Of a stretch of 64,000 bases of DNA, positions 8,163-10,378 are shown piece after piece (position 1 is the stretch's first letter; every line of letters starts with the position of its first letter). The notes beneath the pieces are model-generated. The model worked only from the letters and a program-made list of their open reading frames with translations, searched no databases and was not told where the DNA came from. Source of the stretch: a phage; sequence record PZ496581.1; one strand, given 5' to 3'. A program made the position numbers and the translations under genes.

Positions 8163-10378
8163 TTATTTGGCCGCTTCCACGGCCTTCATGAATTTAACGA
8201 TTTGAGCGACCTGTTCTTTGGAAAGAGTACCACGTCGTCCCATGTATTCTGACACAATATGATAATTGGTTTCGAATTCAATAACCATTTTATCATCATT
8301 ATCGTAAGCATTATCTTTAAGCTTATCGAAAATTTTAGCGCACAATTCTAACTTCCTGTTCAGGTCTCTGTTATCAGCACCTGCGAATCGATTCCATCCC
8401 CAGCGATTATTTACTGTTGAGAGTTTTGCAAAGTCTTTACTGATTTCTTTGTTCTTAGAGCTAAAATACTTACTAAGGAAGTTAAGCTCTTCGTTACGAG
8501 TAATATGATTCAAATAAGGCTGTGCTCTACGACTTGGTGATACATACTCATCATAATCCACTTTATCAATTAGCGTAATATAGTCGTTAATTGATTTTTC
8601 GAACAAGCATTCTACTTCACCAAGTTTACGAACTTTCTTAGCAATCTGTGGACGGACTACAGTGAACTCTTTAATACCTGACAAATCAGCAATACGGGTC
8701 AAGAAATTGGAGTCATAGTTCAACCAACCTTTATCTGCGTCAAGACATTCAGCATTAGAACGATTACGAACTATAGCATAACCTTGGATTTCATCAGCTT
8801 CACTCGCTGGAATAAAGAGATCTTCCGATACCCAAACATCGTTTTCGTTCTTGAAGAAACGATGGGCACTCGGTGATTTAGGGCGAGGCCCATTAGAACG
8901 AGTCTTGACTTCAATCCATGGCTTAACGATTTGTAAAAGCTCTGAAGTCTTGTACATGTTAATGTTGTCGCCATCAAAGATAACTTTAAGGCGTTCCAGA
9001 AGTTTCATTGCATCTTCGTCTGTAGGGTCAACGAATAGTACGCTTTTACCAAAACCGCGTGGAACTTTACCGGTTAATTTAACCTCGTCTTTAGACATTT
9101 CAATTGAATTAAGAGCTCGCATTAATGGAACGCGTCCCTTAACGTCGTCAATAACAATTTCAACGTTTTTAATGTTAATGCCAATCAGGCTATTAATTGA
9201 AATGGTTGTTGATGAGCTACCACTTTCACGAATACGACGAAGACGAGGGGATTCAACGATATCGTATACGACGCCAAGATTACACCACTCAGGCCCCATT
9301 TTAAAACGTTTGTACAACTCGGAATAAGTTAGTTGTTCTTTAGAGTATTTCAGTGATTCAATATTAGACCCGGCCTTTTCCATGTATTTACGAGCGGTAT
9401 AGCCAAGAGAATCAATTTCACGGAACACATGACGTGGGTATTTACAATCAATCCATTTCTTAGAATCTTCAGCGAACAATTTAGCATCGATTTCTGCAAC
9501 ACGTTTATGGATATTTGCTACTGTACGTTTATCAAATGACAATGCTTCACGAGACGGGGCTACATCTAGTTCACCCATAGGGAATTTAATATAAGCTGTA
9601 GTGCATCGCGTCATCATCCATGTTTGTTCTTTAATAACACTTCCGATTGGATATACAATACCACCATAAACAGCCATGATATTACCACGTTCACCCCATG
9701 GAGCTTCCTTGGCCAAATATACATCGTCAAATTCAGGAAAGTATTTAATATCTTTAACACCACGAACTTCTGCAATATCACCTAGAGGACGCATAACATA
9801 TGCAATTTCAGATGCGAACTTTTCAAAATCTTCTGGGTTAACCGGTACAACTACTTCTACACCCGTACGGTCATCGGGGCCCATCTTATCTACAAAGGTT
9901 GGCTTAATTTGTGGACCTGTGTCATCTTGGTAGATTACGTAACCACGAACTTCACCGTTGTGATAAGACGTAAGGTTAAACGTATCGGTATATGCTAGTG
10001 GAGCTTTAGAGCCGAGTCCGAATCCACCAATGAAATCGTTACTCGATGTTTTAGTTGAAGCAAAATATGAGTTATAGATTCCTGGCTCTTCGTCATTACC
10101 TCGAATGGTGAAATCACTCATACCAGGACCAAAGTCTCGAACTACAAAACGCGGGTCTAAACGACCTGGAGCCTGAACAATAAACTTATCAGTGCAACCA
10201 TTAAGAATTTGTCCATCGATACAGTTTGTGATTAATTCACGTACACAAGCCAATTCTTTGTTTGTATAAAGGTCTCATTAGACAAAATCTTATAAACTTT
10301 GCTATTGCCTTGAATAGTGAATGCTGTGCTCTTACCGCCTGAACCAATAATTGTTTCTTTAGCCGTTTCAATAATCAT
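8163..10378 (-). CDS. rIIA: rIIA protein, reading frame broken near 10271-10276
   Basis: Main 696-codon frame has GHKL N-box (VRELITNCID) but no ATG; rIIA-like N-terminus [17 protein letters not shown]... starts at 10378 in another frame. Confidence 0.65.

Follow-up and report, generated by a model that had tools for sequence, protein, structure and literature searches.

A 2-bp tandem duplication breaks rIIA in the sequence record of a Mosigvirus phage: a recent null allele or an error of the record?

Does the phage behind sequence record PZ496581.1 carry a broken rIIA gene, or is it only its sequence that is broken? The stretch of this record that we analysed, 64,000 nucleotides long and called here the window, is a segment of a T-even phage of the genus Mosigvirus (RB69-like); over 25 kb it shares about 97.5% identity, and the gene order, with Escherichia phages APCEc01 and moskry. 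A sequence-only reading of the window, made by a model, had noticed an rIIA-like N-terminus that starts at ATG 10378 behind a Shine-Dalgarno sequence and runs into a stop at 10232..10234, as well as a main frame of 696 codons that begins only after in-frame TAA and TGA stops. This layout is indeed the one found on the minus strand: rIIA as written consists of two frames, one of 48 codons (ATG 10378 to TAA 10234..10232) and one of 696 codons (8163..10253), the latter preceded by an in-frame TAA (10280..10278) and TGA (10277..10275). Both frames match PHROG 612 (RIIA), the short one at profile positions 1-36 (E=2.9e-7) and the long one at positions 44-724 (E=9e-207); a single continuous open reading frame (ORF) of about 737 codons is absent from the sequence as written.

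Alignment with three relatives places the lesion in codon 35 (GAC to GAG ACC), where the window reads AATGAGACC and the relatives read AATGACC, that is AAT GAG ACC vs AAT GAC C; it is a tandem duplication of 2 bp. The ggtctc at 10271..10276, to which the sequence-only reading had pointed, was the right place, as the duplicated TC of the plus strand falls inside it. The same reading had called for one extra nucleotide in order to join the two frames; adding one base does restore the frame arithmetically, but the real lesion, as 154 relatives show, is a duplication of two bases, and we rejected the idea of one missing base since the relatives show the window with two bases too many. A query of 501 bases around the site covers 499 bases in each close relative and, for the 81 bases around it, all 154 matching phage records (Mosigvirus) align at 79 of 81; the insertion is therefore in none of them. 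A 28-mer bearing the insertion had no exact match in IMG/VR, JGI metagenome contigs or GTDB genomes; the intact 26-mer, used as a positive control, was recovered from IMG/VR. Exact-protein searches with the 48-, 696- and 652-residue products and with RIIB yielded no match, nor did a search of the E. coli genome collection.

When the two bases are deleted, the result is an ORF of 2214 nt and 737 codons, collinear with that of the relatives and of exactly the same length, which agrees well with the 740 codons or so that had been expected of a continuous frame. Everything else in rIIA is intact. The window-specific codons of the repaired ORF comprise 17 synonymous and 4 non-synonymous ones, which argues that the gene was under purifying selection until very recently. 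The lesion is single and very young, or else it is not real. To judge by its reading frames, rIIA as written is a pseudogene or null allele rather than a functional member of the family, and we lean modestly towards the frameshift being genuine, that is, a very recent null allele present in the phage itself.

What such a gene would make can be read from its frames. The normal ATG and Shine-Dalgarno sequence would yield a peptide of 48 residues, codon 35 turning from GAC (Asp) into GAG before 13 further out-of-frame codons and the stop, and the remaining 696 codons, among them all of the putative GHKL-type ATPase core as well as the C-terminal portion, would be left without a start signal of their own. 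Orthologues of rIIA possess an N-terminal domain of the GHKL superfamily (PMC7824862); in the window, the E47-x3-N51-x2-D54 motif that would belong to this Bergerat fold is visible, and Pfam and PDB sequence searches detected no domain or solved homologue. The sole upstream start candidate of the long frame is TTG 10253, located 19 nt upstream of the stop of the short frame and devoid of a Shine-Dalgarno sequence; the next in-frame ATG, at 10121, lies past the motif. Reinitiation at this TTG, or a -1 slip at A_AAG (10259..10256), may provide at most traces of near-full-length RIIA. By analogy with T4, we infer that the phage should be an rII null or a severe hypomorph, showing rapid lysis on B-type hosts and exclusion by RexAB of lambda lysogens, two traits that belong to the known background of rII (bioRxiv 10.1101/2025.10.21.683753).

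We took a census of the indels that set the window apart from moskry, APCEc01 and FP43. Seven isolated small indels are private to the window, five of them in the middle of coding sequences (Table 1), and none of these five frameshifts is present in the related records available for each site, which number from 93 to 226. The same test applied to APCEc01 and FP43 returned no frameshift in the middle of a coding sequence; their isolated private indels were intergenic or, once, at codon 2. The window also lacks 631 bp of a 331-codon gene, a stretch present in the three relatives compared directly as well as in the ten best-matching records listed, and this deletion looks genuine. Altogether, at least five frames are broken in these 64 kb besides rIIA, four by frameshifts and one by the 631-bp deletion.

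Table 1. Features of the rIIA region and lesions private to the window
Feature	Position	Strand	Evidence
rIIA, whole locus	8163..10378	minus	PHROG 612; single 2214-nt coding sequence annotated in relatives
Truncated frame: 34 native RIIA residues (M1-N34) and 14 out-of-frame residues (ETFIQTKNWLVYVN), then TAA	10232..10378	minus	PHROG 612, positions 1-36
Remainder of rIIA (codons 42-737), with the ExxxNxxD motif (E47, N51, D54)	8163..10253	minus	PHROG 612, positions 44-724
rIIA lesion, GA to GAGA (plus strand TC to TCTC; GGTC to GGTCTC at 10271..10276)	10273..10276	minus	alignment with relatives
A_AAG in the truncated frame, putative and sole plausible -1 slip site back into the main frame	10256..10259	minus	sequence read directly
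Shine-Dalgarno-like GAGAG, 6 nt 5' of the rIIA ATG	10385..10389	minus	same in relatives
rIIA.1, intact, 66 codons, directly upstream of rIIA	10391..10591	minus	Pfam PF24210 T4_RIIA1, E=2e-30
rIIB, intact, 315 codons, directly downstream of rIIA	7206..8153	minus	PHROG 609, E=4e-105; length equals that of APCEc01
Mid-coding indel: +GA in rIIA	10273	minus	0/154 related records
Mid-coding indel: +C (CC to CCC, adjoining a T6 run), codon 102 of a 140-codon RB69ORF005c homologue	13826; ORF 13808..14134	minus	0/154 related records
Mid-coding indel: +TC, 82-codon conserved hypothetical ORF truncated after codon 64	51134 (51130..51137); ORF 51123..51329	minus	0/144 related records
Mid-coding indel: -A (A5 to A4), codon 26 of a 71-codon putative membrane protein	51941; ORF 51907..52017	minus	0/226 related records
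Mid-coding indel: -T outside any run, about codon 54 of a 93-codon signal-peptide protein	61690; ORF 61625..61834	minus	0/93 related records
Out-of-frame loss of 631 bp within a 331-codon gene, flanked by imperfect direct repeats TCATCGTCAG / TCATCGACAG (10/11 matching)	59116..59125; ORF 59102..59395	minus	

Outside genes, two indels are private with respect to the same three relatives, namely the loss of an A at 22520 and the extension of a T5 run to T6 (28619..28624) after a terminator-like hairpin, GGAGACCGAAGTCTCC. Three intergenic A/T runs, at 7179..7184, 35287..35294 and 47676..47681, vary in length among the four genomes (4-7, 7-10 and 6-10 bases, respectively); these are naturally hypervariable homopolymers. 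The gene 43 DNA polymerase (38277..40988, minus strand) carries two changes that are private vs the three relatives, Met189Ile and Ser360Gly, which would be pertinent only for the idea of a polymerase mutator.

The private indels share more than their absence from relatives. At 51134, the inserted dinucleotide and its context are those of the rIIA lesion, AAAGGTC followed by an extra TC, and GGTCTC arises at both sites. Since the same insertion thus occurs twice in a shared context, and since all four private insertions adjoin CCTTT/AAAGG, a context-dependent process seems to be at work, be it a systematic sequencing artefact or site-specific enzymology. Fifteen AAAGGTC 7-mers are present in the window when both strands are counted; 13 are without a private insertion, one of these being preceded by a conserved ancestral GA. 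Tandem duplications of 2-4 nt that create a new repeat are thus found at 10273..10276 (GAGA) and at about 51134 (TCTC), and their occurrence is non-random and site-specific, both following AAAGGTC. The TC-bearing sequences that topoisomerase cleavage would have to account for are AAAGGTCATTAGAC and AAAGGTCTTTAAGACC.

A trapped type II topoisomerase leaves de novo duplications of 2-4 nt as its signature in yeast and in human tumours (review PMC11477040), and we therefore examined the topoisomerase genes of the window. Drugs that stabilise cleavage are known to act on T4 topoisomerase (PMC3016281; PMC11461880); in the work of Masurekar, Kreuzer and Ripley (1991) as it is cited by the review (ref 76 of PMC11477040), this enzyme defines acridine frameshift hotspots. 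Of the two subunits considered, gp39 is free of private changes, and gp52, which bears the catalytic tyrosine (gene 3409..4734, minus strand), carries Ser78Tyr (TCT to TAT, 4503..4501). When gp52 is aligned without gaps (BLASTP) to E. coli GyrA, whose N-terminal sequence was checked by its canonical numbering, the Ser78 position corresponds to Ser83, Asp82 to Asp87 and Tyr117 to Tyr122. Ser83 of GyrA is the classical quinolone-resistance position. The phage change is thus like the bacterial ones at GyrA Ser83 (Ser83Tyr, Phe or Leu) or ParC Ser80 in that it aligns exactly with them, the equivalents of Asp87 and Tyr122 being conserved; it differs from them in standing in a phage-encoded topoisomerase, the likeness being one of alignment.

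Ser78Tyr is in none of the 1456 phage records matching a 30-residue segment of gp52, all of which stay below 99% identity; 662 of these records, among them T4, are one residue off the window in this segment, the residue being Ser78 in the relatives that were read. A second gp52 change is private vs the three relatives, Thr432Ile at 3439..3441. The window copy of the acridine-resistance gene ac is full-length and has no window-private residue, and hence gives no independent sign of acridine selection. Our literature search returned nothing usable on a T4 gp52 drug-resistance mutation S79F or on a cleavage consensus of T4 topoisomerase.

How could these elements fit together? Ser78Tyr may have been selected by a topoisomerase poison, or may itself alter cleavage and religation; the lineage would then have gained, in rIIA or in short accessory frames, an AAAGGTC+TC duplication at each of two sites, indels of one base away from long runs, and a deletion through microhomology. 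In the reading that we favour, too, the private lesions of rIIA and of the short unnamed frames would most likely arise from the processing of cleavage complexes of the phage type II topoisomerase. The coincidence of Ser78Tyr with the matched duplications favours, as far as aligned sequences can tell, a real mutational history related to the topoisomerase, and circumstantial support suggests a topoisomerase origin for the duplications. That the phage's own type II topoisomerase, in a lineage with a unique gp52 Ser78Tyr, left the rIIA break as one mark among several is nevertheless a tentative proposal, and we hold it to be rather doubtful.

The choice between a real allele and a faulty record, the two options that the sequence-only reading had named, was not an easy one. 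If the record is at fault, rIIA is intact in the phage, and errors of consensus, base calling or assembly account for the extra GA as they do for the other private small indels; we take this to be a serious possibility, somewhat short of probable. Several observations weigh against a genuine, topoisomerase-made lesion, and most of them speak at the same time for an artefact. Five private mid-gene frameshifts in 64 kb, each missing from all the related records at its site, vs zero in APCEc01 and FP43, fit an indel-prone consensus. Two identical insertions in an identical 7-mer, with all four insertions beside CCTTT, look systematic, and this would equally fit a context-specific base-calling error on DNA with arabinosylated hydroxymethylcytosine; Mosigvirus DNA does contain this modified base (PMC13390438), which could disturb signal-based sequencing. 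The affected ORFs are otherwise perfect, as expected for errors and for very young mutations alike. One also has to keep in mind that Ser78Tyr and the duplications are tied together by an argument from coincidence, and that a 2-bp duplication is no simple outcome of a 4-bp staggered cut.

Other observations speak against an artefact. A generally noisy sequence is not supported: over 80 genes, the private codon changes are 239 synonymous and 45 non-synonymous (84% synonymous), a normal pattern that is the same in the three relatives and shows no surplus of non-synonymous substitutions. Long homopolymers are not where the indels lie, and such runs are essentially all correct. Among the 41 comparable A/T runs of at least 6 bases, four differ from every relative, three of which also vary among the relatives; an error of the homopolymer type thus fails to explain the indels. 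We know of no common sequencing platform for which 2-bp insertions are a typical error. A base-calling error set by local sequence alone is weakened by the 13 other GACCTTT sites that lack a private insertion, four of which share AAGACCTTT with the site at 51134. No long conserved gene is struck: the five private frameshifts fall in rIIA and in four ORFs of 71-140 codons, and the long conserved replication genes are spared. The probability that at least four of five random coding hits would fall in genes of at most 450 nt is 0.029, a value of only about 0.03 for a test picked after the data had been seen, which counts among the reservations about a genuine allele. Finally, an artefact would make the unique Ser78Tyr of gp52 an unrelated coincidence.

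Two further explanations accept the duplication as real and read it otherwise, and we consider both as very improbable. The first is a functional recoding, in which programmed -1 frameshifting or reinitiation still makes RIIA, or in which the two pieces act as separate subunits. The slip-prone A_AAG does lie within the overlap of the two frames, where a -1 slip would be expected to give the trans-frame peptide KILSNETFIQTK-ELACVR, and the TTG stands close before the stop of the short frame, reinitiation being documented for T4 rIIB. All 154 relatives, however, have one continuous ORF, no X_XXY_YYZ heptamer is present, the TTG has no Shine-Dalgarno sequence, and the 131 nt around the site fold in an unremarkable way (z=-1.82; 10 of 200 shuffles gave as good a fold); we reject recoding because the frame change is unconserved, the slippery heptamer absent and the local fold insignificant. 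The lesion also stands outside any homopolymer of at least 6 bases, unlike the contingency locus of T4 rIIA. Such a phage contingency locus is a homopolymer repeat of 6 or more, an A6 run having been proposed in T4 rIIA (bioRxiv 10.1101/2025.10.21.683753), and it was rejected for the window, as the context AATGA[GA]CCTTT holds no run of that length.

The second is a deliberate knock-out, in which 2 bp would have been inserted to inactivate rIIA, and likewise another gene, with a GGTCTC (BsaI/Eco31I) site as a diagnostic by-product. Both 2-bp insertions do create this site, and rIIA is a classical non-essential marker gene; yet scars, markers or other foreign sequence are absent, the other gene hit is an anonymous ORF of 82 codons, struck near its 3' end, and three single-base frameshifts and a deletion come along. 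DNA with hypermodified cytosine is, moreover, a poor restriction substrate, so GGTCTC would be of little diagnostic use, a further point against engineering. Three other mechanisms were discarded after inspection by eye: simple polymerase slippage, as no repeat pre-exists at the rIIA site; quasi-palindrome templating, as the inverted repeat is lengthened at one site and shortened at the other; and escape from CRISPR, as the insertions fall outside any protospacer or protospacer-adjacent motif they could disrupt.

Read as a genuine allele, the rIIA break resembles several known systems. The closest are the classical frameshift mutants of T4 rII, reportedly those of Benzer and of Crick, Barnett, Brenner and Watts-Tobin (1961), in which a small insertion likewise shifts the frame of an rII cistron and truncates its product; the genes are orthologous and stand in the same rIIA.1-rIIA-rIIB arrangement adjoining topoisomerase gene 39, whereas the present case is a +2 duplication of rIIA in a Mosigvirus, known here from a sequence record alone. 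As in duplications mediated by Top2, the 2-bp tandem duplication makes a repeat where none stood and recurs in the AAAGGTC context, and the phage topoisomerase is uniquely changed in the drug-binding helix of the DNA gate; the yeast events, for their part, need end joining and a 4-nt overhang. With the contingency locus of T4 rIIA the break shares a frameshift that turns rIIA off and might be reversed; it differs in that the window lesion is in no run of at least 6 bases, a two-copy dinucleotide not being expected to slip at a high rate.

Frameshifted rII alleles are a long-known type of mutant, indeed a textbook phage mutation, and the rIIA break alone matters little. In practice, either the record needs correcting or rIIA ought to be labelled a frameshifted pseudogene, and those who work with the phage should be prepared for rapid lysis and sensitivity to RexAB as a possible phenotype. 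Provided that the lesions are real, it would be a ready system for topoisomerase-mediated frameshift mutagenesis and for drug selection acting on phage-encoded topoisomerases. Should the topoisomerase origin hold true, it would offer a sequenced case, in its natural context, of a T-even phage whose frameshifts are driven by topoisomerase, and would tie the classical acridine and rII work to the Top2 duplication signature of yeast and human tumours.

The neighbourhood of the gene is the one expected for RIIA. Gene 39 topoisomerase, a 366-codon gene, rIIA.1, rIIA and rIIB follow each other in the order found in annotated relatives, with gene 39, rIIA.1, rIIA and rIIB all in place; the 366-codon gene (10684..11784, minus strand), which lies between rIIA.1 and gene 39, has no Pfam match. 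Over residues 35-737, the rIIA product of moskry is 99% identical to that of the window. Nearly all genes of the window are carried by the minus strand.

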